64,000 nt of DNA from a virus (Duplodnaviria > Heunggongvirae > Uroviricota > Caudoviricetes). The DNA is taken from the IMG/VR virus record IMGVR_UViG_2609459792_000007; one strand, written 5' to 3'. The notes beneath the pieces were generated by a model that was not told where the DNA came from, searched no databases, and saw nothing but the letters and a program-made list of their open reading frames with translations. This document shows positions 3,875-42,627 of the stretch, piece after piece (position 1 is the stretch's first letter; every line of letters starts with the position of its first letter). Both the position numbers and the translations under genes were made by a program.

Positions 3875-4186
3875 ATGAAAAAATCATTGGTTCTTGGTCT
3901 GGACAAAGACCAGAAGAGAAAAGAGAAGCCTGCGCTGGTTGCTCAATTAACTTTGCTGGACATCGTTGCCAATGGAACCTCTATTCGTCTGTTCCGTGAA
4001 ACAGCGGTGTCTTTCGATAAAAACACCTTTACTCGTTATGTAATGAATGTTCGTCGCCAGCGTGGAAAAGGCTGGGTGGCATTTCAAAGAATGTGGCCGG
4101 AACATCAGCTCGAACTGGCTTTGATGGAAGTTAACCGCGTGGCCCAGCAAGAGATTCAGAGAGCATCAGTGATGGCAATAGCCTGA
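3875..4186 (+). CDS. hypothetical basic protein
   Basis: ATG 3875 with RBS acggag; ORF track start 3845 lies inside the operator. Confidence 0.55.
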   Translation: MKKSLVLGLDKDQKRKEKPALVAQLTLLDIVANGTSIRLFRETAVSFDKNTFTRYVMNVRRQRGKGWVAFQRMWPEHQLELALMEVNRVAQQEIQRASVMAIA

Positions 4187-4220
4187 TAATGTGCAAGTGG
4201 TAATTAGTCGACAGTACGAC

Positions 4221-4249
4221 AGCCCCGCCATCCTTACGGGGCTTTTTTG
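4221..4249 (+). terminator. rho-independent terminator
   Basis: agccccg-ccatccttac-ggggct followed by tttttt. Confidence 0.8.
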
Positions 4250-4253
4250 TATT

Positions 4254-4269
4254 GTAAGTACATACTTAC
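4254..4269. promoter_or_regulatory. palindrome GTAAGTA-CA-TACTTAC (family B, TAAGTA type)
   Basis: Perfect inverted repeat directly after the terminator and upstream of the 4313 gene. Confidence 0.5.
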
Positions 4270-4312
4270 GATCATAGAATATAAAAATAACCAAAACACT
4301 ACGGAGAGTGAA

Positions 4313-4708
4313 ATGACCGTTAAACGCGAAAAACTGACAGTTGATGTTTACTATGCCTCTGAAACCGCCGAAGGTAAGAATGTGGCAAAAATCACCGTTG
4401 TTACGTACAACACCGAAACTGGTGCCGAAGTCCAGGCCAGTACGATTGTGCGTAAAGGTGATGCCTCCGGCGGCGAGTACGCGACTCAATACCAGTCCAT
4501 TCTCGATGCAACTGACCCGCTGCTGCTGAAAATCGAGAACTACTTCCGCCAGGTTGATGAAGAGGTGTTTGAAACCATGATGAATATGGTTAACACCGTA
4601 TTCGCCTCCAGCCTGAATACCAACACTACCTGGATTGGTCAGTACGGCCTGCGCATTACCTCTGGCATTCCTGCCGACACCTTAATCCCTGAAAGCGTAT
4701 TCGCTTAA
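4313..4708 (+). CDS. hypothetical protein
   Basis: ATG 4313 with RBS ggagag 5 nt upstream. Confidence 0.65.
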   Translation: MTVKREKLTVDVYYASETAEGKNVAKITVVTYNTETGAEVQASTIVRKGDASGGEYATQYQSILDATDPLLLKIENYFRQVDEEVFETMMNMVNTVFASSLNTNTTWIGQYGLRITSGIPADTLIPESVFA

Positions 4709-4720
4709 TCCTCTTTAAAT

Positions 4721-4748
4721 GGCGCGTAAACCGCGCCATTTTATTATG
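4721..4748 (+). terminator. rho-independent terminator
   Basis: ggcgcg-taaacc-gcgcc followed by attttatt. Confidence 0.75.
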
Positions 4749-4751
4749 CCC

Positions 4752-4768
4752 GATAACAATTTGTTTTC
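4752..4768. promoter_or_regulatory. operator-like palindrome GATAACAATTTGTTTTC (family A)
   Basis: Same word plus tctgcc flank as the copy at 1244. Confidence 0.5.
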
Positions 4769-4825
4769 TGCCTTATCTGATTTGTGAAAATGATTTCACT
4801 GAAGCAACTTAATAAGGAAACCATC

Positions 4826-5200
4826 ATGGGACTTGATATCTATATCGAGACGCAGCCTAAAAACGATCTGAATAACGAGGCATCCAGAAAGCAGGTTGCT
4901 TACTTCCGTAAGTTCAATGCGCTCGTTGGGTGGATGGAGCGCAACGTAGGTGAAGTCGAAAATTGTGAGCTTTTAGAATTAACGATGAATGACATTTGTT
5001 TTCTGAAGGCTCATTTGATGCACATAAACGAAAGTAATTGCGAAGAGTACTTGCCTACCCGGGAAGGTTTTTTCTTCGGCAGTCAGGAGTACGATGAAGG
5101 TTACTGGCATGATGTGGGGCAGTTGAAAGAGCTTGTGGAAGATCTGATTAAGAACCACGACTTTCACAATAACAGACTGACCTTCTGCGCCTGGTGGTAA
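4826..5200 (+). CDS. hypothetical protein
   Basis: ATG 4826 with RBS aaggaaac; ORF track start at 4784. Confidence 0.6.
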   Translation: MGLDIYIETQPKNDLNNEASRKQVAYFRKFNALVGWMERNVGEVENCELLELTMNDICFLKAHLMHINESNCEEYLPTREGFFFGSQEYDEGYWHDVGQLKELVEDLIKNHDFHNNRLTFCAWW

Positions 5201-5202
5201 AT

Positions 5203-5346
5203 ATGGGCGATTTCAAGAAACGCCTGAAGGAAAGAGCCGAGATGGTCAGAAAGCGAAACGCCTCTTCTGTCATCAGATACGCAAGGCAGTTTAGTCGCAA
5301 CAACAAATCAGTTGAGGAAAAGATCCTTAGCGTAATCGGGCGATAA
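5203..5346 (+). CDS. possible small basic protein (47 aa), below ORF-track size cutoff
   Basis: ATG 3 nt after the upstream stop; K/R-rich translation MGDFKKRLKERAEMVRKRNA...; ends just before terminator. Confidence 0.3.
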   Translation: MGDFKKRLKERAEMVRKRNASSVIRYARQFSRNNKSVEEKILSVIGR

Positions 5347-5349
5347 TTA

Positions 5350-5377
5350 TTAAGGCCACCAGCATTGGTGGCCTTAA
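5350..5377 (+). terminator. hairpin terminator, copy 1 of a twin element
   Basis: ttaaggccacca-gcat-tggtggccttaa. Confidence 0.6.
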
Positions 5378-5501
5378 ATGACTTTTAATAACCGAAGGTT
5401 AGTTTGAAACCTGGCTATCAACTTCCAGAACCTTTCTTGTGTATTCAGCCTGTATTAACTTCTTTTATGCCTTATCTACACTGCGATAATTACACCAACA
5501 A

Positions 5502-5518
5502 GAAAACAACATGTTTAC
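5502..5518. promoter_or_regulatory. operator variant GAAAACAACATGTTTAC (family A)
   Basis: Preceded by GATAAT (5485-5490) plus tacaccaac spacer as at 3345 and 5970. Confidence 0.5.
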
Positions 5519-5535
5519 GCAGTGAGGATATGCTC

Positions 5536-5817
5536 ATGACTGATTTCACCATTACCCCTAAAGCACAAAATGTATTCCTTGAATCATGGCTGGACTTGCC
5601 GGAAACAGAACAGCAAGAAATGGATCATGTGGATTATGACGAGCAGGTAAGCACGCGATTCTTCCACTTTGAGGGCTGCGTTTACGACATTGCCGACTTC
5701 ATGCGAGATGACCGCTTCCCTGAATGGCACGCCAGTTATCCACTAAACGCCTTTGCCATGCTGATGATCCGTGTGGATGATTCAGGGGATACCATCGACA
5801 TCGGTCTGCTCCACTAA
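5536..5817 (+). CDS. hypothetical small acidic protein
   Basis: ATG 5536 with RBS gagga 7 nt upstream; D/E-rich. Confidence 0.6.
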   Translation: MTDFTITPKAQNVFLESWLDLPETEQQEMDHVDYDEQVSTRFFHFEGCVYDIADFMRDDRFPEWHASYPLNAFAMLMIRVDDSGDTIDIGLLH

Positions 5818-5820
5818 AGA

Positions 5821-5848
5821 TTAAGGCCACCAATGCTGGTGGCCTTAA
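5821..5848 (+). terminator. hairpin terminator, copy 2 of twin element (loop inverted)
   Basis: ttaaggccacca-atgc-tggtggccttaa; same stem as 5350 with loop gcat changed to atgc. Confidence 0.6.
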
Positions 5849-5986
5849 ATGACCATCCTGTTTCCCGCAGGCTAAAAACACCAACCTCTTACCTCCAGGC
5901 AACCGACAAACCCACCTGTTCCCGTCCGGCTACCGCAACTTTCCACTTTGACGCCTTATTCGTACAACGATAATTAACACCAACAA

Positions 5987-6002
5987 GAAAACAATTTGTT
6001 AT
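5987..6002. promoter_or_regulatory. sigma70-like promoter plus family A operator GAAAACAATTTGTTAT
   Basis: TTTGAC (5946-5951), 16-nt spacer, GATAAT (5968-5973), then the dyad, then RBS aagga. Confidence 0.6.
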
Positions 6003-6021
6003 TTACGATAAGGAATTAATC

Positions 6022-6504
6022 ATGAATTTTATCGCTACTGTAAACGCACCCGCACATGGCAATATCGCTGTAACGTTCTCTGACATTGAAAAACGAGTAC
6101 TTGGTGCATGGCGCGACAATGAGACGGTAGAACTGTCAGCACAAGAAAAATGCATTATTGCACGCGACATCATTGGCAATCGTCGTTACTCGCGGGTATT
6201 TGAGAAAGCGTATGTGGTAAATTCTGGGTTCGGAACGTTCGTCTTTCCGGTGCGCTCCGGGCGATTCTGCCAGTCCAAGCTGATTGAGTTCGCTACGCAG
6301 ATTTCTGTCTGGATTAAAACTCAATCGTCGTTCAAATTTTCCGACGATGAAGCAGTATCGCAGGGGATGCGGATCGCCAACAATGCGATTAAATGCAAAA
6401 ACATTACGTATACCGCTGGCGTTGACACATGGAAACTGTTTTGCGCTAACTTTATGCTGAATGTATACGCAAGCAACCGCATCCACATCCTTGATGGCGT
6501 GTAA
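6022..6504 (+). CDS. hypothetical protein (160 aa)
   Basis: ATG with RBS aaggaa; preceded by promoter/operator module. Confidence 0.65.
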   Translation: MNFIATVNAPAHGNIAVTFSDIEKRVLGAWRDNETVELSAQEKCIIARDIIGNRRYSRVFEKAYVVNSGFGTFVFPVRSGRFCQSKLIEFATQISVWIKTQSSFKFSDDEAVSQGMRIANNAIKCKNITYTAGVDTWKLFCANFMLNVYASNRIHILDGV

Positions 6505-6513
6505 CTGAGAAGA

Positions 6514-6535
6514 GGGCCAGAAACGGCCCTTTCTC
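6514..6535 (+). terminator. hairpin terminator
   Basis: gggcc-agaaac-ggccc followed by tttctc. Confidence 0.6.
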
Positions 6536-32722: not shown

Positions 32723-35700
32723 TTGGACATGGAACAGTTCAAGAAGAAAAAATTACCGCTTCTTATTGCCGGTGCTGGTGGCAAGAAAAGTAAAAGCTCC
32801 AGCCGTACCCCGGTTGAAGCTGATGATACTGTCAATTCTCGTGCTATGGCAGCCATCCTCGACCTTCTTGGCGAGGGGGTTATCGGTGGCCTGGTAAATG
32901 GCGCAAAGTCGATCTTCATCGACGATTTACCGATCTTGAATGAAGATGGCTCTTCCAACTTCAGCGGTATTACATGGGATTTTCGTGACGGCTCACAAGA
33001 CCAGACGCCAATGGCTGGTTTTGATTTTGTTGAAACGCCTAAGTCCGTAAATATTCAGCTTAAAAAAACACACGACGTTACGGTTTCAATCGATAACGAT
33101 GAAGCTGATCGCGTTCGTGTCATCATGAAATTCCCCTCTTTACGTAGCGTTGATAAAAGCTCTGGCGATACAAATGGCACTACGGTGAAGTACAAATTCC
33201 AGATCGCCAACGGAGACGCAACATTTTCTGATGTAGTGGCAGAAGGTGAGAAAAGCGTTGATATCACGCTAACGGCAAAGAAAACAGGCGTGTATTACCG
33301 TAGCTATGAGCTGAAACTACCTAAGCCTGGTCGTGCATACAAGGTTAGGGTGATTCGTCTTACAGATGATAACAGTAGCCAGTACCTCTACAACGACACA
33401 TGGGTTGATTCCATAGGTGAGATTGTCGACACGCCAATGAACTACCCTAACTCTGCTCTTGTTGGCTTGAAGGTCAATTCAGAGCAGTTTGGTAGCACAA
33501 TGCCTTCCCGTTCGTATTTGGTGCGCGGTATCAAAATCCGAGTACCGTCAAACTACAACGAATACACCAATACTTATGTCGGCGTATGGGACGGTACTTT
33601 TAAGCTGTTGTCTTCTTCAAACCCTGCGTGGATTCTCTACGATTTGCTTACCAATACTCGGTATGGTCTTGGGCAATTTGTGTCGGAATCCATGATTGAC
33701 CTCGGCCAGCTCTACCAGATTGGTCGATATTGTGACGAAGAGGTCGATGATGGCTTTGGGGGTAAAGAGAAACGCTTTGCAATCAATACGCAGATCACCA
33801 GTCGACAAGACGCATACCGATTAATTCAGGATATTGCCGGTGCATTCCGCGGCATGGTGTTTTGGGCTGGTGGCATGGTTAACATCATGCAGGATAGCCC
33901 ATCAGATCCGGTAATGATGTTTACCAACTCCAACGTCAAAGATGGACTGTTTACCTATAAAGGTTCTGCGCGTAAAGATCGCCCATCCGTTGCGCTCGTA
34001 ACCTACAACAACAAGGAGGACGGTTATAAGCAAAATATCGAGTACGTTGAAGATCAGGACGCAATGCGCCGTTATGGTGAGCGTAAAACAGAAGTCGTAG
34101 CATTTGGATGTACAAGCCGAGGCCAGGCTCACCGAGTTGGTTTGTGGCTTTTGTATACCGCCAGAATGGAGTCGGATGTAATTACATTTACTGCCGGCTT
34201 AGACGCCTCATTTCTGATGCCCGGTGAAACCGTTCTGATTCAGAACAAATATCGTGCAGGTAAACGTAACTCCGGTCGAATTGTGGAGTTTACCAAAAAC
34301 AGCATCACTCTCGATGCGCCTGTGTCGTTAGCTAAAAGCGGCAGCTTTATTCGGATATTGAATCAGGAAGGCAAAATCGTTGAACGTGATGTTCTTGAAA
34401 CTGGCGAAAACATAACAAAGGTTACGTTTTCAAAAGCTCTGTCGTCAGCGGAAACGCCTGTTTTGAACGGTGTCTGGACAATTACAGAACCAGATCTCGA
34501 ACCTATGCGCGTTCGCATCGTTAACATCGCGCAGGGGGAAACGCCGGGTAGCTTTGACATCACCGCTGTTGAGAACAATCCGTCTAAATATGAGGCAATC
34601 GACAATGGTGCAACGCTTATCCCGCAGAATACGACGGTATTGGACCCGACTTACTCTAAGCCATCTAATTTGCAAATCACTGAAGGGACTTATCTCTCAA
34701 GCCCGGGCAACCTGTCAGTAAAACTGACTGCAACATGGGAAGGAAAATCTCCAGAGTATTGGATCAGTTGGCGACGTTCTGATGAAAACAATGTATCGAA
34801 CTGGCAATCGGCGCGTGTAACCGAAGAGCAATACGAAATCGTTAATGTCGCGGAGAATGGACGCTACGACTTCCAACTGTATGCGGTTTCATTCAACGGT
34901 AAAAAAACAGAGATTATCAGTACCGTTTATCAGGTGTTGGGCACAATGACACCGCCGGATGCCCCAACGTCATTAACGGCCGTTGGAGACTATCGTAATG
35001 TGATACTGAATTGGGTTAATCCAGATTCGGTAGACCTTGATCACATTAATGTTTACGCATCCCAGACCAACAATCTGGATACGGCGAAACTGATCGCAGA
35101 GTCTGCAAGCACCACCTTTACACATGCTGGTCTTGGGGATAGCGAAACGTGGTATTACTGGGTTCGAGCATCGAACAAGCGAGGTATGTTAAGCCCTCCG
35201 AACTCAAACTTGGGTACAGAGGCGACAACTCGCGATGTACTGTCGTTCCTGGCTGGCAAAATTACATCTTCCGAGCTTGGTCAGGCTCTGCTTGAGGACA
35301 TCAACAGTAAAGCCTCTCAAGAAGCAGTTGACGAGTTAAATGAGCATATCAACCAGAGCGTCGAATCTTTGGAGGGGTCGGTAAACGACGTTAAGGAAGA
35401 TATAGCTGAATTAGATAAGCAGTTCAGCGATAACCTCGCGGGTTTTGAAATAAAATTCAACGAGCGTAGCGATGCTTTGGAGAACGCACAAACCGAGCTT
35501 AAAGGTGAGGTTTCGGCAACGATCGACAAGGTCAATGAAGCGTTTGAAAAAATTGATGCTACTGATGCTGCAATTGTTGAAATCGAAAACACCGTATCTG
35601 AACACGATAAAGCTCTCGCTAATACAGTCGAGGCAATAAAGGCTGCAAGAGACGAAGCGGCGGCTCTTATTGCTAAGGAAAGCGAGGCTCGTGTAGAAGG

Positions 35701-37453
35701 TGATGCCGCAAACGCTAAACAACTGGAAGTGTTGCAGTCGACGGTAGAGGAAAGTTCCGCAGCTGTTGAAGAAATGAAAAAGACGGTTGCAGAGGTCGAT
35801 CGTGCCAGTGCAGAACTGACTACGAACATTGAGGCGTTAGCCAAAACAAATATTGACCTGGCTCTTCGTCAAGATGAAGACCAGCACAAGCAGATGGTCA
35901 ATAACGCGAAGATCGCAACAACACAGAAAACCTTTGCTGATGATATGTCTGCAATGGCCACGAAGGTTGAGGAAATTCGCGTAGAAATTGGCGAAGACAT
36001 TAAGGCCAGTATTCTGGAAGAGTCCACCGCTCGTGCCGATGGCGATGAAGCGTTGGCAAAGCGTGTCACTCAGCTGCAATCTAAGTTTGAAGGAGATATC
36101 AGCGCGGCGATTAGTACAGAACAGGAGGCTCGTACATCTGCCGATGAAGCTTTGACGAAACAAATAACTCAGCTTGAGTCGAAAGTAAGCAACGATATTG
36201 TCGCAGCCATTAAGGAAGAGCAAGAAGCCCGAGCAACGGAAGATTCGGCTCTGGCAAGCCAGATCACCCAACTTCAGGCAAAAGTTGATGATGATATTTC
36301 TGCTGCAATACGCAGTGAGCAGGAGGCGCGTGCGAGCGGAGACTCTGCGTTAGCTAAACAAATAAACCAGCTTCAAGCAAAGGTTGACGGTGATATATCC
36401 GCCGCCATCACTCAGGAGCAGGAGGCCAGAGCAAGTGCTGACGAGGCGCTCTCACGAGAAATTAACAGCCTGCGGGCGCAGACCGGAACTGACATTGCCG
36501 CAGCCGTTGCTGTAGAGACAAAGGCAAGGACTGACGCCGATAGTGCATTGTCCAGCCAGATTACATCTCTTACAGCAAAAGCTAATGATCTCGAGGCGTC
36601 TCTTGCCAAAGAAACAACGGCTCGTGCAGATGGCGATACCGCTTTAACAAAAGAGGTTTCAAGTTTAAAAGCACAGACTGCGAAAGATATTAGTGCGGCC
36701 GTTGCAGTGGAAACGCAGGCTCGAACTGATGCTGACTCGGCGCTATCGTCTCAGATCACCAAGCTGACCTCTCAATACAAAGAGGATATTAAAGCGGCTG
36801 TAGCAACCGAAACGAAAACGCGTACAGAGCAAGATGCGGCACTGGCGACTCAAATCACAAACTTAGAGTCTCAAACAGCAGCCAACATTTCTGCGGCGGT
36901 CACAACTGAAACGACAGCGAGAACGCAGGCAGATAATGCACTAAGTGGGCGAATCGATACTCTGAAAGCAGAGGTGGATGGAAATACCGCGACAATTCAA
37001 CAGCAGGCAACAGCCATTGCTGATACCAACAAAAAAGTCTCAACCGCGTGGACGTTGAAAATGGAGACTTCAACGAGCGGAGGGCAGAAGTATGTTGCCG
37101 GTATTGCGCTTGGTATCGACACCACCGGTCTTTCTCAGTTTTTGGTGCAGGCGGACAGATTTGGTTTGGTCAACTCTGTTAACGGGAAGATCACCACGCC
37201 ATTTGTTATCGAAAACAGTATCGCCTATATGAATGGTGCGTATATCAAGGATGGCACAATCACCAATGCAAAAGTAGGCGATCTGCAATCTACCAATTTT
37301 GTTAGCGGTAGATCTGGATGGCGGTTCGGCAAAAATGGAACGCTTGAGATCAACGGTAATAGCGGCGGCAATGGGCGACTGGTCATAAATGGTCAGCGGA
37401 TTGACGTTTATGACGATAACAACGTCCTACGAGTAAGAATTGGCCTTCTGTGA
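32723..37453 (+). CDS. tail tip / host specificity protein (lambda J-like) with internal tandem repeats
   Basis: 1576-aa ORF after the M/L/K/I-like series; central block of about ten 33-aa repeats. Confidence 0.8.
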   Translation: MDMEQFKKKKLPLLIAGAGGKKSKSSSRTPVEADDTVNSRAMAAILDLLGEGVIGGLVNGAKSIFIDDLPILNEDGSSNFSGITWDFRDGSQDQTPMAGFDFVETPKSVNIQLKKTHDVTVSIDNDEADRVRVIMKFPSLRSVDKSSGDTNGTTVKYKFQIANGDATFSDVVAEGEKSVDITLTAKKTGVYYRSYELKLPKPGRAYKVRVIRLTDDNSSQYLYNDTWVDSIGEIVDTPMNYPNSALVGLKVNSEQFGSTMPSRSYLVRGIKIRVPSNYNEYTNTYVGVWDGTFKLLSSSNPAWILYDLLTNTRYGLGQFVSESMIDLGQLYQIGRYCDEEVDDGFGGKEKRFAINTQITSRQDAYRLIQDIAGAFRGMVFWAGGMVNIMQDSPSDPVMMFTNSNVKDGLFTYKGSARKDRPSVALVTYNNKEDGYKQNIEYVEDQDAMRRYGERKTEVVAFGCTSRGQAHRVGLWLLYTARMESDVITFTAGLDASFLMPGETVLIQNKYRAGKRNSGRIVEFTKNSITLDAPVSLAKSGSFIRILNQEGKIVERDVLETGENITKVTFSKALSSAETPVLNGVWTITEPDLEPMRVRIVNIAQGETPGSFDITAVENNPSKYEAIDNGATLIPQNTTVLDPTYSKPSNLQITEGTYLSSPGNLSVKLTATWEGKSPEYWISWRRSDENNVSNWQSARVTEEQYEIVNVAENGRYDFQLYAVSFNGKKTEIISTVYQVLGTMTPPDAPTSLTAVGDYRNVILNWVNPDSVDLDHINVYASQTNNLDTAKLIAESASTTFTHAGLGDSETWYYWVRASNKRGMLSPPNSNLGTEATTRDVLSFLAGKITSSELGQALLEDINSKASQEAVDELNEHINQSVESLEGSVNDVKEDIAELDKQFSDNLAGFEIKFNERSDALENAQTELKGEVSATIDKVNEAFEKIDATDAAIVEIENTVSEHDKALANTVEAIKAARDEAAALIAKESEARVEGDAANAKQLEVLQSTVEESSAAVEEMKKTVAEVDRASAELTTNIEALAKTNIDLALRQDEDQHKQMVNNAKIATTQKTFADDMSAMATKVEEIRVEIGEDIKASILEESTARADGDEALAKRVTQLQSKFEGDISAAISTEQEARTSADEALTKQITQLESKVSNDIVAAIKEEQEARATEDSALASQITQLQAKVDDDISAAIRSEQEARASGDSALAKQINQLQAKVDGDISAAITQEQEARASADEALSREINSLRAQTGTDIAAAVAVETKARTDADSALSSQITSLTAKANDLEASLAKETTARADGDTALTKEVSSLKAQTAKDISAAVAVETQARTDADSALSSQITKLTSQYKEDIKAAVATETKTRTEQDAALATQITNLESQTAANISAAVTTETTARTQADNALSGRIDTLKAEVDGNTATIQQQATAIADTNKKVSTAWTLKMETSTSGGQKYVAGIALGIDTTGLSQFLVQADRFGLVNSVNGKITTPFVIENSIAYMNGAYIKDGTITNAKVGDLQSTNFVSGRSGWRFGKNGTLEINGNSGGNGRLVINGQRIDVYDDNNVLRVRIGLL
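35990..36980 (+). repeat. about ten tandem 99-bp (33-codon) repeats inside the J-like gene
   Basis: Repeating EQEARxxADxALxxQITxLxxKVxxDISAAI units. Confidence 0.8.
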
Positions 37454-37482
37454 TGGTAGAAAAAAATATTTATATCGGTAAA

Positions 37483-37525
37483 AATAAGTAGGTACTTACT
37501 TAATGGTGGGCAAGGATAGCCCACC
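37483..37525. promoter_or_regulatory. family B motif plus GGTGGGC hairpin upstream of fibre gene
   Basis: aaataagtaggtacttactta then ggtgggc-aaggata-gcccacc, then RBS aaggag. Confidence 0.5.
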
Positions 37526-37546
37526 AAATCAAGGAGCATATTCAAC

Positions 37547-40500
37547 ATGTGGTACAGGGAAGGTACTATCACATTTACACAGGGTAGTAATACTCTGGTT
37601 GGGGTTGGGACAGCCTGGAACGTAACAGCTAATGGTGTGTTGCCGGGGATGATCGTCATTGGCCCCGACAATAAGCTGTATGAGATCAAGCGCGTAACAA
37701 GCGATACGAACATTGTTCTCTCAGAACCTTATACCGGTGAAACTCAGTCTGAAGTTCCGTGCCGAATCATTACTACCTATGAAGGCGACTTAACACAGTT
37801 TAGCGCGCGCTTTACCGCGCTAATGTCGCGTATGTCGGCTGATTCCAAGTCCATGCGTAGTTGGTTGACTGCTCTGGATGAGGTGACAATCGAGCGTGAA
37901 GACGGTACAGAAGTGACCGTTAAGCCGCTGATGCAGATCGTCAACGAGCACAACGAAAACGTTGAGTGGTATAAAAATAACACTGACGCGATTGATGCCG
38001 CTGGTGACAAAGCTCGTGAGGCGGCGGCCAGTGCTGCCGCAGCAGCAGAAAGCGCCAATACCGCTGGAGAAAAAGCATCTCAAGCGTCTCAAAGTGCATC
38101 CGCTGCGGCATCCTCACAAAGTGCCGCAAGTGCGAGTGCAACTGCTGCGAAAAAATCTGAAACGAACGCAGAATCAGCATATCTATCGGCAGCAGAATCA
38201 GCGTCTGTAGCGTCGACCAAAGCATCGGAGGCAGCAACATCTGCGTCCAGTGCCTCTGCATCTAAGGATGCAGCCAAAGCATCAGAGACTAACGCTTCAT
38301 CGAGTGCAAACGCGGCTGCATCATTTGCAACAGAAGCTGAAAATTCGTCTAAGGCAGCAAAAGCGTCAGAGACAAACGCAAAAGCATCTGAAACGGCAGC
38401 CGGGCAGAGTGCATCGTCTGCAAACAGTTCGAAATCTGCGGCAGAAGCGTCAGCAAGCGCAGCCTCAGCAAGTGCGGATAGTGCTTCATCAAGTGCAACT
38501 GCGGCAGGAAAATCTGCGGAAAGCGCGTCGTCATCAGCGACAACAGCTACCGCAAAAGCGACTGAGGCGACGAATCAGGCTACAGCTGCTAAAAATTCAG
38601 CATCGGCAGCAAAATCCTCTGAAACAAATGCAAAGGCTTCTGAAGATAATGCCGCTTCCTCTAAAGAGGCAGCTGCTGAATCTGCAAGTTCTGCGTCTGC
38701 ATCAGCCACCTCGGCATCTGCTTCAAAAGATGAGGCGACCAAGCAGGCATCAGCTGCGAAGGGGAGTGCTTCAACGGCATCCACGAAAGCAACAGAGGCG
38801 GCAGGTAGTGCGACGGCTGCATCTCAGAGCAAAGCTGCTGCTGAATCCGCTGCGACCCGTGCAGAAGCTGCCGCTGATCGTGCTGAAGAGATCGCCGGTG
38901 CAGTTGCGATGGAAGACGCAAGCCTTACCACCAAAGGTGTTGTGAAACTTAGCAGTGCTGTCGATAGCACCAGTGAATCGCTGGCCGCAACGCCAAAGGC
39001 AGTTAAAGCAGTCAATGACAATGCGAACAGCAGGGTGCCATCTAACCGAAAAATTAACGGGAAAGCACTGACTGCGGATATCACATTAACGCCGAAAGAT
39101 ATTGGTACTTTAAATTCAATAACGATGTCTTTCTCTGGCGGGGCCGGGTGGTTCAAACTGGCTACTGTTACAATGCCACAAGCGAGTTCCATCGTTTACA
39201 TCGCATTGATTGGTGGCGCTGGTTACAACGTCGGCTCCCCACATCAGGCAGGCATTTCAGAACTGGTTCTACGAGCAGGCAATGGAAACCCCAAAGGGAT
39301 TACAGGTGCTTTGTGGAAGCGTACAGCTGTCGGATTAACGAATTTCGCCTGGATCAACACATCCGGCGATACATATGATATTTACGTTGAAATTGGCAAT
39401 TATGCGACGAGTGTAAATATCCATTGGGATTGTACTGCAAATGCGTCAGTTTCTATTTATACATCGCCAACATATTCAGCGAGTAAGCCTTCCAGCGTTA
39501 CCGATGGTGTTGTTTATACGTTGTATAGCACACATCAGAAACCGACGCCGTTAGATATTGGAGCACTGCCAACAACCGGAGGAACAGTTTCAGGTCCGTT
39601 GTCTGTTACTGGTGGGATCACCGGAACATTAAATGGTAATGCAAGTACAGCAACGAAATTGCAGACGGCAAGATCTATCGGTGGAGTTGTTTTCGACGGT
39701 TCTGCAAATATTAACCTTCCAGGTGTAAACACTACGGGTAATCAGAACACCACTGGTAATGCTGCAACTGCTACAAAACTTCAGACGGCACGCACAATTG
39801 GCGGGGTAGCATTTGATGGCAGTGTCAATATCGACCTGCCGGGCGTGAATAAAGCAGGCAATCAGAGCACTACCGGCAATGCTGCAACCGCTACAAAACT
39901 ACAGACAGCGCGTACAATCAACGGTGTTAAGTTTGATGGTTCTGCGGACATAACGCTGACTCCTGCGAACCTTGACGTATACAGCAAAAGCGAAATAGAC
40001 AATAAAAAAGGGATGAGAAAATACACTTTTTCAGCGCCTGCAAATGCAGTAAGCGGTAAGTGGTATCCTATAGTCTTTCGCCGATCTGGAGGCAGTACCG
40101 ATGAATTAGCCTCACGAGTTGTGATAACTACTTATTCCTCAGCTGGCGGATACGCCATGAATAATTGTGAATTTAATGGGTTTGTTATGCCTGGCGGTTG
40201 GTCTGATCGCGGTTCATATGCGGCTGGTTTTTTCTCAATATATTCTACTGCTGAGCGAGCTATACACTCGATTATTTCAAGTGTGAAAGATGACGATTTG
40301 TGTAGTGTATTTTACGTTGAAGCCAGAGCATTCCCTATCAAGATATTTGCTGAGGAGGGCTTGAACGTAATTGTTCCAACGGCTGATTATGCAGTTGGTC
40401 AAACCACTTATAAGTGGGGGGCAACTGATCCTTTATCAGAAAGTACGAATGCACAGATAATTTTGGACTTTAAAAATGGACGAGGTTATTACTGTTCACA

Positions 40501-41704
40501 TCCATTTATTTCAAGTCTTTCAGGAAATGCTGCTACAGCAACGAAATTGCAGACTGCAAGAACTATCGGCGGCGTGGCCTTCGATGGATCTGCGAACATA
40601 AATTTGCCTGGTGTAAACACGGCAGGTAATCAGAATACAACGGGCAACGCGGCTACTGCTACGAAGTTGCAAACAGCGAGAAACATCAATGGTGTTAAGT
40701 TTGATGGCTCAGGCGATATCAACATTAATACATTGGTATCTCGTGGCCGAGTTACGGCGTTAAGCGGCTCTACTCAAGGCACTGCTGGCATTCAAATGTA
40801 CGAGGCGTACAACAATAGTTATCCGACCACGTATGGCAACGTATTGCACATGAAAGGTGCGAGTGCTGCTGGTGAGGGCGAGTTGCTTATTGGCTGGAGT
40901 GGTACGAGCGGTGCACATGCGCCGGTTTTCATTCGCTCCCGAAGAGATACCACTGATGCGGCATGGTCAGCGTGGGCGCAGGTATATACCGCTAAGGATT
41001 CAATCCCTGGTGTGAATACAACCGGTAATCAGAACACTACTGGTAATGCCGCAACCGCCACAAAATTGCAGACAGCAAGGAAAATTGCTGGTGTGGCGTT
41101 TGATGGCTCTGCCGATATTACTTTGACTGCGGCTAACCTTAATGCTTACACGAAAACAGAGGTAACAAACCTTCTAAGTTCCTATGCAAGCAGATCATCA
41201 CTGACAGGCTATAGTGGCAACCTGGATATTATTGCTGAAACACTGGTTGTCAAATCAGGCGGTAGTGGAGGGTTTGCTATATGGGATATTGGCACAACTA
41301 CTAGCGGTGCCAATATGTACATTGATCCAAACCCAGGTATCAATACAGTTTGGCGTTCAACATCTTCAAGGCGCTATAAAAAGGATATTGAAACATTACA
41401 AGATCGATATGCTGATGAACTTTTGTCATTAAGACCTGTTTGGTATCGTTCAATTTGTCGAGGTGACCGAAAGGATTGGGGGTATTACGGCCTTATTGCT
41501 GAAGAGGTTGGTGAGATTGCCCCGCAATATGTCCATTGGCGTGAACCAACAAATAATGATTCTCCAGAAGATATTTCCTCCAATGGTATGGTCGCTGAAG
41601 GAGTGATGTATGAACGTTTGGTTGTACCACTCATTCATCATATTCAGCAATTGACCAAAAGGGTTGAGGAGCTTGAAAAGAAGTTAAATTCACCTAAAGA
41701 ATAA
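37547..41704 (+). CDS. long tail fibre with C-terminal intramolecular chaperone (peptidase S74-like)
   Basis: 1385 aa; Ala/Ser-rich segment; repeats NTTGNQNTTGNAATATKLQTAR; C-terminus ...DWGYYGLIAEEVGEIAPQYV... typical of autoproteolytic chaperone domains. Confidence 0.8.
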   Translation: MWYREGTITFTQGSNTLVGVGTAWNVTANGVLPGMIVIGPDNKLYEIKRVTSDTNIVLSEPYTGETQSEVPCRIITTYEGDLTQFSARFTALMSRMSADSKSMRSWLTALDEVTIEREDGTEVTVKPLMQIVNEHNENVEWYKNNTDAIDAAGDKAREAAASAAAAAESANTAGEKASQASQSASAAASSQSAASASATAAKKSETNAESAYLSAAESASVASTKASEAATSASSASASKDAAKASETNASSSANAAASFATEAENSSKAAKASETNAKASETAAGQSASSANSSKSAAEASASAASASADSASSSATAAGKSAESASSSATTATAKATEATNQATAAKNSASAAKSSETNAKASEDNAASSKEAAAESASSASASATSASASKDEATKQASAAKGSASTASTKATEAAGSATAASQSKAAAESAATRAEAAADRAEEIAGAVAMEDASLTTKGVVKLSSAVDSTSESLAATPKAVKAVNDNANSRVPSNRKINGKALTADITLTPKDIGTLNSITMSFSGGAGWFKLATVTMPQASSIVYIALIGGAGYNVGSPHQAGISELVLRAGNGNPKGITGALWKRTAVGLTNFAWINTSGDTYDIYVEIGNYATSVNIHWDCTANASVSIYTSPTYSASKPSSVTDGVVYTLYSTHQKPTPLDIGALPTTGGTVSGPLSVTGGITGTLNGNASTATKLQTARSIGGVVFDGSANINLPGVNTTGNQNTTGNAATATKLQTARTIGGVAFDGSVNIDLPGVNKAGNQSTTGNAATATKLQTARTINGVKFDGSADITLTPANLDVYSKSEIDNKKGMRKYTFSAPANAVSGKWYPIVFRRSGGSTDELASRVVITTYSSAGGYAMNNCEFNGFVMPGGWSDRGSYAAGFFSIYSTAERAIHSIISSVKDDDLCSVFYVEARAFPIKIFAEEGLNVIVPTADYAVGQTTYKWGATDPLSESTNAQIILDFKNGRGYYCSHPFISSLSGNAATATKLQTARTIGGVAFDGSANINLPGVNTAGNQNTTGNAATATKLQTARNINGVKFDGSGDININTLVSRGRVTALSGSTQGTAGIQMYEAYNNSYPTTYGNVLHMKGASAAGEGELLIGWSGTSGAHAPVFIRSRRDTTDAAWSAWAQVYTAKDSIPGVNTTGNQNTTGNAATATKLQTARKIAGVAFDGSADITLTAANLNAYTKTEVTNLLSSYASRSSLTGYSGNLDIIAETLVVKSGGSGGFAIWDIGTTTSGANMYIDPNPGINTVWRSTSSRRYKKDIETLQDRYADELLSLRPVWYRSICRGDRKDWGYYGLIAEEVGEIAPQYVHWREPTNNDSPEDISSNGMVAEGVMYERLVVPLIHHIQQLTKRVEELEKKLNSPKE

Positions 41705-41764: not shown

Positions 41765-42019
41765 ATGAGCTATGGTGCACAGGTTTGGTCGCCATCAAGA
41801 CAGGAGATGGTCGATGCGTTGGCCCCTGTTTATTACCTCGATTATTTTACTCCCTCTGGTTCTGGAAGTAGAACATATGAGGTTGAGGCGGGATTGGGAA
41901 TCGACTATTACATAATGGACGTAACCAATGGGAAATACACAAGTCTTACGGTTTCTGGAAATACCATTTCATGGTCTGGAGCTAGTGGCAATTTAAACAT
42001 ATTGGTTTTTCAAAAATAA
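41765..42019 (+). CDS. hypothetical protein (84 aa)
   Basis: AT-rich ORF after fibre gene; RBS aaggatatatttATG. Confidence 0.5.
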   Translation: MSYGAQVWSPSRQEMVDALAPVYYLDYFTPSGSGSRTYEVEAGLGIDYYIMDVTNGKYTSLTVSGNTISWSGASGNLNILVFQK

Positions 42020-42627
42020 TGTACGGAAGCAAGATATATCGATCTGACGGGAAGGTCTGGATGTCTCCTTCTTTGTCTCCTATCGTTTTTCAGAGAAAGC
42101 AGGTTGTTTCTTTGTCTGGCGGGACAGAGTTTAACACCCAAATATCTCCAGATCGTTCACCGATGATTTTTGTTGCCTATTCGAAAGCTGTTTCATTAAT
42201 AGCCAACAGAATAGTGCGTAACAACCAGGTGATTTACAGTTTCGGAGGTCAGGGTAGCGACTCTAGTGCCACGATATACGTATTTTCGAAAGGTATAGCC
42301 AAAAAAGAAACTTGGGGCATGAGTTTTTTCAATGCGCGAGGAGAGGAGATCTATAATACGGCAAATATCCCACTTTCATTTACCTTTCTTAATAATACGG
42401 AGTGGAACAGTTCTGGAGGGCATGTTTTTGATTACCCGCCAGCGATAATCCCAACATATGCAAATGTGTTCGCGGTTCCAGTACCGGGCGGGGCCATGAC
42501 AATGGTTTATGGATATGCGGCATATGGAAATACTGTTAGTTCCATATTCGTAAACCAACTTAATGGCGGCCATAGTTTTAGCGTAAATGGCAGAGTACCG
42601 GTAATAAATAGAAATCTGTATAACTGA
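42019..42627 (+). CDS. hypothetical protein (202 aa)
   Basis: AT-rich ORF coupled to upstream gene. Confidence 0.5.
   Translation: MYGSKIYRSDGKVWMSPSLSPIVFQRKQVVSLSGGTEFNTQISPDRSPMIFVAYSKAVSLIANRIVRNNQVIYSFGGQGSDSSATIYVFSKGIAKKETWGMSFFNARGEEIYNTANIPLSFTFLNNTEWNSSGGHVFDYPPAIIPTYANVFAVPVPGGAMTMVYGYAAYGNTVSSIFVNQLNGGHSFSVNGRVPVINRNLYN

Follow-up and report, generated by a model that had tools for sequence, protein, structure and literature searches.

A tandem array of 33-residue units in a lambda-J-like central tail fibre protein as a candidate fold-switching shaft

It has long been asked where non-contractile tails find the energy to open and to penetrate the outer membrane. Here we consider one locus that may bear upon this question, the J-like tail gene of IMG/VR record IMGVR_UViG_2609459792_000007, a 64,000-nucleotide (nt) stretch of tailed-phage DNA (the window), whose product carries ten tandem 33-residue units directly before its distal tip domain. 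The closest described system is the central fibre of the F-type pyocins, in which residues 921-1083 of the F7 protein (163 residues) make up a trimeric coiled coil in the particle that has yet to eject and a beta-prism once ejection has taken place (He et al., bioRxiv 10.64898/2026.01.28.702463). In the same study, Gln placed at the small residues of the prism corners (the 'S' positions) abolished killing by the F7 pyocin and left assembly unaffected, and related phage fibres, sought by similarity to the C-terminal ~400 residues of the F-pyocin central fibre, carried the motif SxSxxMxxLxS on each strand with its direction alternating. Acidic residues at M pair with an Arg four residues away, the Glu1039-Arg1043 pair being visible in the map as a salt bridge buried in the coiled coil, and the non-switching region starts with about three beta-prism strands which form the seed. 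Two further structural papers describe the pyocin shaft as a coiled coil with a short kink to which the side fibres attach. Neither 'repeat' nor 'periodic' occurs in the text of He et al., which also makes no mention of SSU5, a Salmonella phage related to our locus. The fold-switch answer to the question of tail energy now rests on one tailocin.

The J gene lies on the plus strand within a single long open reading frame (ORF) at 32723..37453, for which a TTG start is listed at 32723; amino acid (aa) numbering is counted from that position throughout. The likelier start is probably the ATG at 32729 (gene 32729..37453), as in the annotation of phage Cyrano, where the counterpart is called 'tail host specificity protein J'. 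A Pfam scan places a hub and fibronectin part at 33029..35197, made up of FNIII-A_GpJ (aa 103-237, 33029..33433, E 1e-29), Phage-tail_3 (aa 359-522, 33797..34288, E 7e-34) and fn3 (aa 746-825, 34958..35197, E 2e-5), and a distal Phage_Tail_Tip domain (PF09327, formerly DUF1983) at aa 1424-1558 (36992..37396, E 1.2e-41). The protein ends 18 aa after this last domain, the C-terminal receptor-binding domain of the lambda type being absent. Compared with PDB sequences, the whole protein matches the F2-pyocin fibre (E 1.3e-155), phage T1 gp33 and lambda J (E 1.3e-127), and in every feature tested it is a member of the lambda-J/TipJ-type central tail fibre family, as a preliminary description of this DNA had supposed on calling it J-like. 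No Pfam family was found within aa 830-1420, either for the units or among the coiled-coil families, which gave no match to J. It is this span that holds the shaft, which opens with a non-repetitive proximal part delimited by composition and periodicity (aa 851-1088, 238 residues, 35273..35986) and continues into the array.

Profile and register alignment resolve the array into ten in-register tandem units at 35987..36973 (aa 1089-1417, 329 aa). Units 1-6, of an 'EQEAR' subtype and 99 nt each, occupy 35987..36580 with first bases at 35987, 36086, 36185, 36284, 36383 and 36482. Unit 7 (36581..36676) has 32 aa through a one-codon deletion near its start (A-NDLEASL...), the other nine units all having 33, and units 8-10 (36677..36973) begin at 36677, 36776 and 36875. 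The ten tandem repeats that had been placed at 35990-36980 are therefore real, their actual ends lying within 3-7 nt of those figures. Residue identity at a lag of 33 is 0.49, against 0.10 +/- 0.017 in 2000 shuffles (z ~24), and searching with a profile of the units returns each of the ten (independent E values of 1e-15 to 1e-20), with one further weak, isolated match at aa 981-1006. The claim that the block consists of 99-bp repeats survives only in part, in that there are ten coding units of which nine are 99 nt long, but unit 7 has 96 nt and the repetition is one of protein. Tandem Repeats Finder reported no 99-nt array in 34000-39000, even at a score of 30, and an exact-seed repeat finder gave fragments only, spaced 99 or 198 nt apart. 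Between units, amino acid identity is 33-79% (mean 48%) and DNA identity 42-61% (mean 52%), with 32% identity at third codon positions, saturated synonymous sites and no exact in-register run longer than 11 nt. By these measures we take the array to be an old protein-level repeat that is maintained by selection on the protein; the low DNA identity would reflect either very old duplications or a codon divergence that is itself favoured because it suppresses recombination. Units 6 (36482..36580) and 8 (36677..36775) are 79% identical in protein and 59% in DNA.

Each unit consists of two 11-residue segments divided by positions rich in Asp, Gly and Asn. The first, at unit positions 7-17, reads S-x-L-x-x-M-x-x-S-x-S and the second, at positions 22-32, reads S-x-S-x-x-M-x-x-L-x-S, and these are the reverse and forward forms of the motif described for the related phage fibres. 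When the whole J protein was scanned for the motif in both directions, the reverse form was found at phase 7 and the forward form at phase 22 in every unit (20 of 20 half-units), the block holding 26 matches where shuffles have 5.6 +/- 2.3. Upstream there is a weaker alternating series, at aa 949 (reverse), 964 (forward), 981 (reverse), 996 (forward) and 1013 (reverse), and motif scan and profile together mark out ~2.5 degenerate units there (aa 949-1023, 35567..35791, plus strand). We also collected 174 distinct ungapped units from relatives; they were picked by a profile made from the window, which inflates the following conservation figures to an unknown degree. Positions 7, 15, 17, 22, 24 and 32 (the S positions) hold small residues in 99-100% of these units, positions 9 and 30 (the L positions) and M27 are hydrophobic in 98-100%, and positions 4 and 20 are Asp or Asn in 99%, with Gly or Asn common beside position 4. 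The pair Glu12/Arg16 (i+4) is present in all ten window units and in all 174 collected ones.

These features bring the array close to the switching segment of the F-type pyocin central fibre (F7 CFP; PA0641; PDB 25vf). Both proteins have a hub, FN3 domains, a helical shaft and a C-terminal tip domain of ~140 aa, and their sequence similarity extends over the hub as well as over shaft and tip. With phmmer, the C-terminal 746 aa of J match residues 926-1193 of the F2-pyocin fibre 25vf_A (E 2.6e-25), and the repeat region alone matches the F-pyocin fibre at E 2.1e-5. Unit 10 aligns with F2-pyocin residues 1029-1061, which places Glu12/Arg16 on Glu1039/Arg1043, and the pyocin core residues L1050 and I1054 fall on unit positions 23 and 27. 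The alternating SxSxxMxxLxS motif and the Glu/Arg(i+4) pair are common to both fibres and, as we read the aligned F2 sequence, its motifs too return at intervals of 32-33 residues, so that the 163 switching residues would amount to about five units. The array therewith carries the sequence-level hallmarks of the fold-switching central fibre group, namely similarity to the F-pyocin fibre, the alternating motif, the Glu/Arg(i+4) pair and a helix directly N-terminal to the tip domain, from which we infer that it may also switch. There are differences too. The window fibre has ten units (329 aa) to the pyocin's approximately five, and upstream of them an extra heptad-like helical segment of 238 aa; it derives from an infectious phage-plasmid and is known from its sequence, whereas the pyocin is a tailocin in which the switch has been seen.

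Consideration of the fold starts from the finding that the hydrophobicity of the block is periodic in two ways, with a strand-like period of 2.06 residues (33/16) and a helix-like one of 3.65 (33/9), the latter corresponding to nine core positions in each 33-residue unit or 3.67 residues per turn. The proximal shaft (aa 851-1088) has a single, heptad-like periodicity of 3.55 and contains no Pro and few Gly. AlphaFold2 (AF2), run as a monomer only and so able neither to form nor to exclude a trimeric prism, modelled the C-terminal part of J from 114 sequences as helix at aa 1057-1251 and 1258-1406, with a predicted local distance difference test (pLDDT) score of ~80-90, a break at the boundary of units 5 and 6 (aa 1252-1257) and strands from aa 1409. 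Across models the helix of units 1-10 is based on 100-114 homologues with pLDDT 80-93. In a crop comprising units 8-10 and the tip domain (mean pLDDT 89.5) the helix again runs up to aa 1406, and the forward motif of unit 10 (aa 1407-1418) becomes a strand that pairs with strands 1421-1433 and 1439-1450; AF2 thus models the SxSxxMxxLxS motif in both a helical and a strand state. The tip domain is all-beta (pLDDT ~90), and a Foldseek search of the cropped model against the PDB matched the tip domain only, to the SU10 fibre and the lambda J central fibre, at low TM-score. In the proximal shaft AF2 covers aa 1056-1088, where it gives helix, and the rest is presumably helical to judge from its composition. 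Taken together with the trimeric coiled coil solved for the homologous F-pyocin shaft, these data make it very likely that the array is a helical shaft in the virion. The coiled-coil segment that had been thought probable here is upheld to that extent, though not as a canonical heptad coil, since the block peaks at 3.65 rather than 3.5 residues.

Another option is that the array is a beta-prism or beta-helical structure from the outset, like the central fibre of lambda, and never passes through a coiled coil. In its favour, the motif and the covariation described below fit hairpins, AF2 makes a strand of the last half of unit 10, and AlphaFold3 (AF3) predicts a prism for 30% of the related phage fibres (He et al., bioRxiv 10.64898/2026.01.28.702463). 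It is very unlikely in our view, as it conflicts with the confident AF2 helix over units 1-10, with the invariant Glu12/Arg16 pair, which stabilises the coiled coil in the solved homologue, and with three cryo-electron microscopy studies in which the homologous shaft, prior to ejection, is a coiled coil. A beta copy may exist just beyond the array. Residues 1418-1450 (36974..37072, plus strand), which AF2 models as two beta strands, show by eye approximate reverse and forward motifs and no Glu/Arg pair; they are probably a degenerate 11th unit, permanently beta, that would correspond to the non-switching seed of the beta-prism.

The most serious alternative is that the array is indeed a coiled coil but nothing more, a static trimeric rod which sets the distance between hub and tip without refolding and whose copy number tunes reach through O-antigen or capsule. 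This was broadly the view of the preliminary description, and it accommodates the confident continuous helix from AF2, the 3.65-residue hydrophobic periodicity, the variation of relatives from 3 to 10 copies and the coiled coil of the pyocin homologue in the assembled particle. A rod leaves unexplained, however, why Ala, Ser or Thr should be near-invariant at six surface positions per unit, why Asp, Asn or Gly should recur at two positions 16-17 residues apart and why the block should have a 2.06-residue periodicity as well. The motif is, moreover, mirror-symmetric about i+j=39 (pairs 7/32, 9/30, 12/27, 15/24 and 17/22), which is the register expected if the symmetry serves to pair the two halves of a unit as an antiparallel hairpin. 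Corrected mutual information was calculated for 95 units, no two of which reach 82% identity, and the top covarying pairs include 18-21, 11-28 and 14-25, all of which lie on i+j=39. The mean along this antidiagonal is 0.060, compared with 0.003 +/- 0.019 when positions are relabelled (P=0.005), and pair 14-25 is charge-complementary, Glu occurring with Arg or Lys, and Lys with Ser or Thr. On general structural grounds no contact is possible, within a parallel coiled coil, between residues 11 or 17 positions apart, and the covariation therefore points to selection on a hairpin state, which is supportive of a switch rather than proof of it. A static rod leaves covariation of this kind unaccounted for, and the homologous pyocin segment is demonstrably not static. 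We consequently think it rather unlikely that the array is a rod alone; it is probably a mechanical element and not a passive length spacer.

The coiled-coil shaft of the F-pyocin carries three side-fibre trimers, and so the repeats might instead be a ladder of equivalent binding sites on which the 1385-aa fibre encoded downstream, or accessory proteins, would dock, the copy number setting the load. Such a role would be compatible with refolding, and the local break in the AF2 model at the boundary of units 5 and 6 (aa 1252-1257) could be taken as a docking point. In the pyocin, though, attachment occurs at one short, acidic, Gly-containing kink and not along the repeat, the window units are regular and lack such a gap, and a search for sequence kinship of the downstream fibre with the side fibre of the pyocin gave nothing, a point on which the two systems differ. 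Docking along the array accordingly strikes us as highly unlikely. No genes resembling PyoF11 or PyoF12 were noticed in the window, in which no search aimed at such genes was made.

The reading that we favour, with a little better than even confidence, is that the helical array of the window phage switches to a beta-prism. It is suggested by the position of the array next to PF09327 and by its homology to the pyocin shaft that refolds, and from the same homology we infer the trimeric state. The shaft sits between the hub and FN3 part of J and the DUF1983 tip domain, and in the virion its units would form a trimeric helical rod with Glu12-Arg16 buried in its core, ~49 nm long for 329 residues at ~0.15 nm each. 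Engagement of the host envelope by the tip or by side fibres would trigger refolding of the array. The strands with which the tip domain begins, being beta already, would act as the seed, and every unit would turn into one antiparallel hairpin of a triangular beta-prism. With 20 strands per chain the prism would be ~10 nm long, so that by our own estimate (0.15 nm per helical residue, 0.48 nm per strand) the shaft would shorten from ~49 to ~10 nm. This shortening would pull the tail towards the membrane, open the tail tip and release the tape-measure protein. Gain or loss of a unit would add or remove one hairpin and nine helical turns, and changes in whole-unit steps would therefore keep the orientation of the tip domain in both states; rare microhomology-mediated slippage would alter the number of units in whole hairpins and in doing so could set both the length of the shaft and its stroke.

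Several points weigh against such a switch and need to be considered. The prism has been observed only in a tailocin, the phage fibres having been assigned by AlphaFold prediction in a set that holds no SSU5-like member, and lambda and T5 do not use a switch of this kind (He et al., bioRxiv 10.64898/2026.01.28.702463). A switching segment of 329 residues would be twice the length of the sole one seen, and the extra 238-residue helical segment upstream has a role that the model leaves unaccounted for. For units 1-9 the AF2 monomer models show helix and nothing else. Both the unit profile and the covariation are drawn from units that were selected with the window profile and that share ancestry, which inflates the two statistics to an unknown degree. 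Finally, quantisation in whole units would also follow from slippage alone, without selection. A more specific proposal is that the 33-residue unit is a modular, quantised spring in which each copy makes one alpha-to-beta hairpin and ~4 nm of shortening, the number of copies, in a series of 3-10 units, sets the stroke and the stored energy of a non-contractile tail, and the first strands of the tip domain are a permanently beta copy from which the array grew by duplication. We regard this as a tentative extension, possible rather than probable.

Whether copy number does vary was assessed by running the unit profile on annotated phages and 66 IMG/VR loci. Database proteins matching the repeat and tip are mostly partial and at most 912 aa long, and were used for unit statistics and alignment and not for copy counts. 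Ten units are found in the window, in Cyrano and in ~30 near-identical IMG/VR contigs, and also in the CMS-2020a SCU-175 type, which has ~70% aa identity in the array part. The PhiR41_1 type has nine, the SSU5 type five, and other lineages have 9, 8, 7, 6, 4 or ~3. Repeat number therefore differs among related elements, as had been anticipated, between 3 and 10 whole units, and in 40 distinct relatives the length of the array falls near a whole multiple of 33 aa. The order of the ten units is conserved between lineages that are only ~70% identical in protein. Among the matching database proteins (P0001-P0120), nearly all are labelled 'partial' and none exceeds 912 aa; several large protein clusters start inside the array, for example P0006 with 102 members.

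Three independent single-unit deletions could be mapped, all at microhomologies of 5-11 nt. The nine-unit PhiR41_1 and the ten-unit CMS-2020a SCU-175 share 99.8% DNA identity over 2.1 kb apart from one clean 99-nt gap, which is flanked by the 11-nt word GCTGCTATTAA. In plasmid NZ_CP027358 unit 4 is deleted, with its junction in the 5-nt word GCAAA at a unit boundary, and plasmid NZ_CP081792 has a chimeric unit 4/5 whose crossover lies within a stretch holding the 11-nt word GAGCAGGAGGC common to units 4 and 5. Copy number thus changes much as the preliminary description proposed, but the recombination that it invoked is unlikely to be ordinary homologous recombination between units, for which their DNA identity is too low (42-61%, no word longer than 11 nt). 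Among 167 plasmids with a Cyrano-type array in complete E. coli genomes, the NZ_CP027358- and NZ_CP081792-type junctions occur in three plasmids each; neither is present in the other 161, such that ~96% keep ten units. The unit number changes by rare microhomology events, and ten units are the stable norm within the clade.

The idea that the array is a recombination-prone contingency locus whose ten copies are unstable, or that these are a product of mis-assembly, could draw on the three deletions in close relatives. It is barely credible beside the divergence of the units, the negative result from Tandem Repeats Finder, the 161 plasmids that bear neither junction and the retention of the ten-unit order between distant lineages, and the array is not hypervariable. 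In a spread sample drawn from the 239 matching complete-genome E. coli records, nearly all Cyrano-type plasmids align without interruption over the full 1854-nt query, as do the ~30 ten-unit IMG/VR contigs, and the collapse of the array in assembly, against which a check had been advised, is excluded for practical purposes. A further suggestion, that copy number tunes host range, found no backing, as no association was seen in a comparison that was not systematic; ten-unit arrays and arrays shorter by about five units both occur in E. coli.

In E. coli plasmid pAVS0968-B (NZ_CP124394, locus 4106-6522) the IS66-family element ISEc23 (tnpA/tnpB) lies inside the array near the boundary of units 7 and 8, at a point equivalent to approximately position 36674 of the window. 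The insertion leaves J as a truncated 'phage tail protein' and a DUF1983 pseudogene, and the tail of this phage-plasmid is probably defective as a result.

Other relatives place the array in a wider context. In phage T1 the J-like protein gp33 (1172 aa; PDB 9L9P; PMC11945409) has 33-aa units (ALSREIDQLKAQIGDDIQASLTDIREVIATETE) directly before a tip domain of the same type, these being nearly exact copies, and matches the C-terminal part of the window J at E 4.6e-30; unlike the window it has only ~3-4 units. Residues 821-1172 of gp33 are unresolved in the structure, and an AF3 model of it protrudes ~370 Å (PMC11945409). Salmonella phage SSU5 gp20 (AFL46947) and the other SSU5-like J proteins are orthologues encoded in the same gene order (tape measure, M, L, K, I, J, fibre). 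All of them share the 33-aa unit, and the first and last units are conserved; they differ in having five units (SSU5) or 3, 4, 6, 7, 8 or 9 (relatives) and, in some, an extra domain after the tip domain. IMG/VR SSU5-like contigs L047-L053, for instance, encode a six-unit J with ~297 aa after the array compared with 159 aa in the window, which implies an extra C-terminal domain; PF12421 is listed for the related partial proteins P0016, P0017 and P0024. Lambda gpJ (PDB 8IYK and others) is homologous in its hub, FN3 and PF09327 regions, but lacks a long coiled coil, gave no match to the unit profile and has a C-terminal LamB-binding domain that is absent from the window J. The Klebsiella phage-plasmids, represented by phage vB_KpnS_p4727 (PQ492289, locus 3980 to end), encode a J homologue whose open frame exceeds 2210 aa and has only its N-terminal 55% in common with the window J; its C-terminal half is different and much longer, and the unit profile finds in it no tandem 33-aa array, only scattered weak unit-like matches.

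The J gene is 94% identical in DNA to those of Escherichia phages Cyrano and CMS-2020a. It has matches in 239 of 5426 complete E. coli genomes (~4%), always on plasmids of ~95-120 kb and, taken together with the kinship to Cyrano and SSU5, this identifies the window, by sequence, as coming from an SSU5/Cyrano-type E. coli phage-plasmid. The fold-switching fibres to which its J protein appears to belong have been described recently, and it would be a long additional member of a kind already known, its candidate switch segment being the longest in our survey. What is new here is modest and comprises the explicit 33-residue hairpin unit, the quantised copy-number series, the covariation for the beta register and the natural nine- and ten-unit alleles. 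Were the switch to operate here, the locus would place the mechanism in a genuine, inducible and genetically tractable family of E. coli phage-plasmids. The array is cleanly modular and comes in natural alleles of 3-10 units, so that the operation of a switch in phages, any effect of its length and any need for hairpin parity are all directly testable. For annotation, a 'coiled coil' ahead of a DUF1983 domain should not be taken for a passive spacer, and the present array is no source of rapid variation.

Turning to the neighbouring genes, a 1530-aa tape-measure protein is encoded upstream of J, followed by small ORFs which in the collinear Cyrano record are M, L, K and I. Within J itself, two antisense ORFs (35317..35844, minus strand, 175 aa; 35837..36271, minus strand, 144 aa) lie fully inside the helical part and are probably by-products of an Ala/Glu/Gln-rich coding strand. 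Downstream, the 1385-aa tail fibre (37547..41704, plus strand) ends in a Pfam Peptidase_S74 chaperone (aa 1273-1329) and is a candidate side fibre and receptor binder. It matches many PHROG fibre families in patches and looks mosaic, its only PDB sequence matches being to 52 aa of the P1/Mu-type fibre S and, weakly, to the T5 L-shaped fibre. After it, on the plus strand, come genes for an 84-aa protein of PHROG 557 ('outer membrane protein', 41765..42019) and a 202-aa membrane-associated moron of PHROG 425 (42019..42627); in the region of SSU5 corresponding to 41765..42627 there is a Cor-like exclusion gene.

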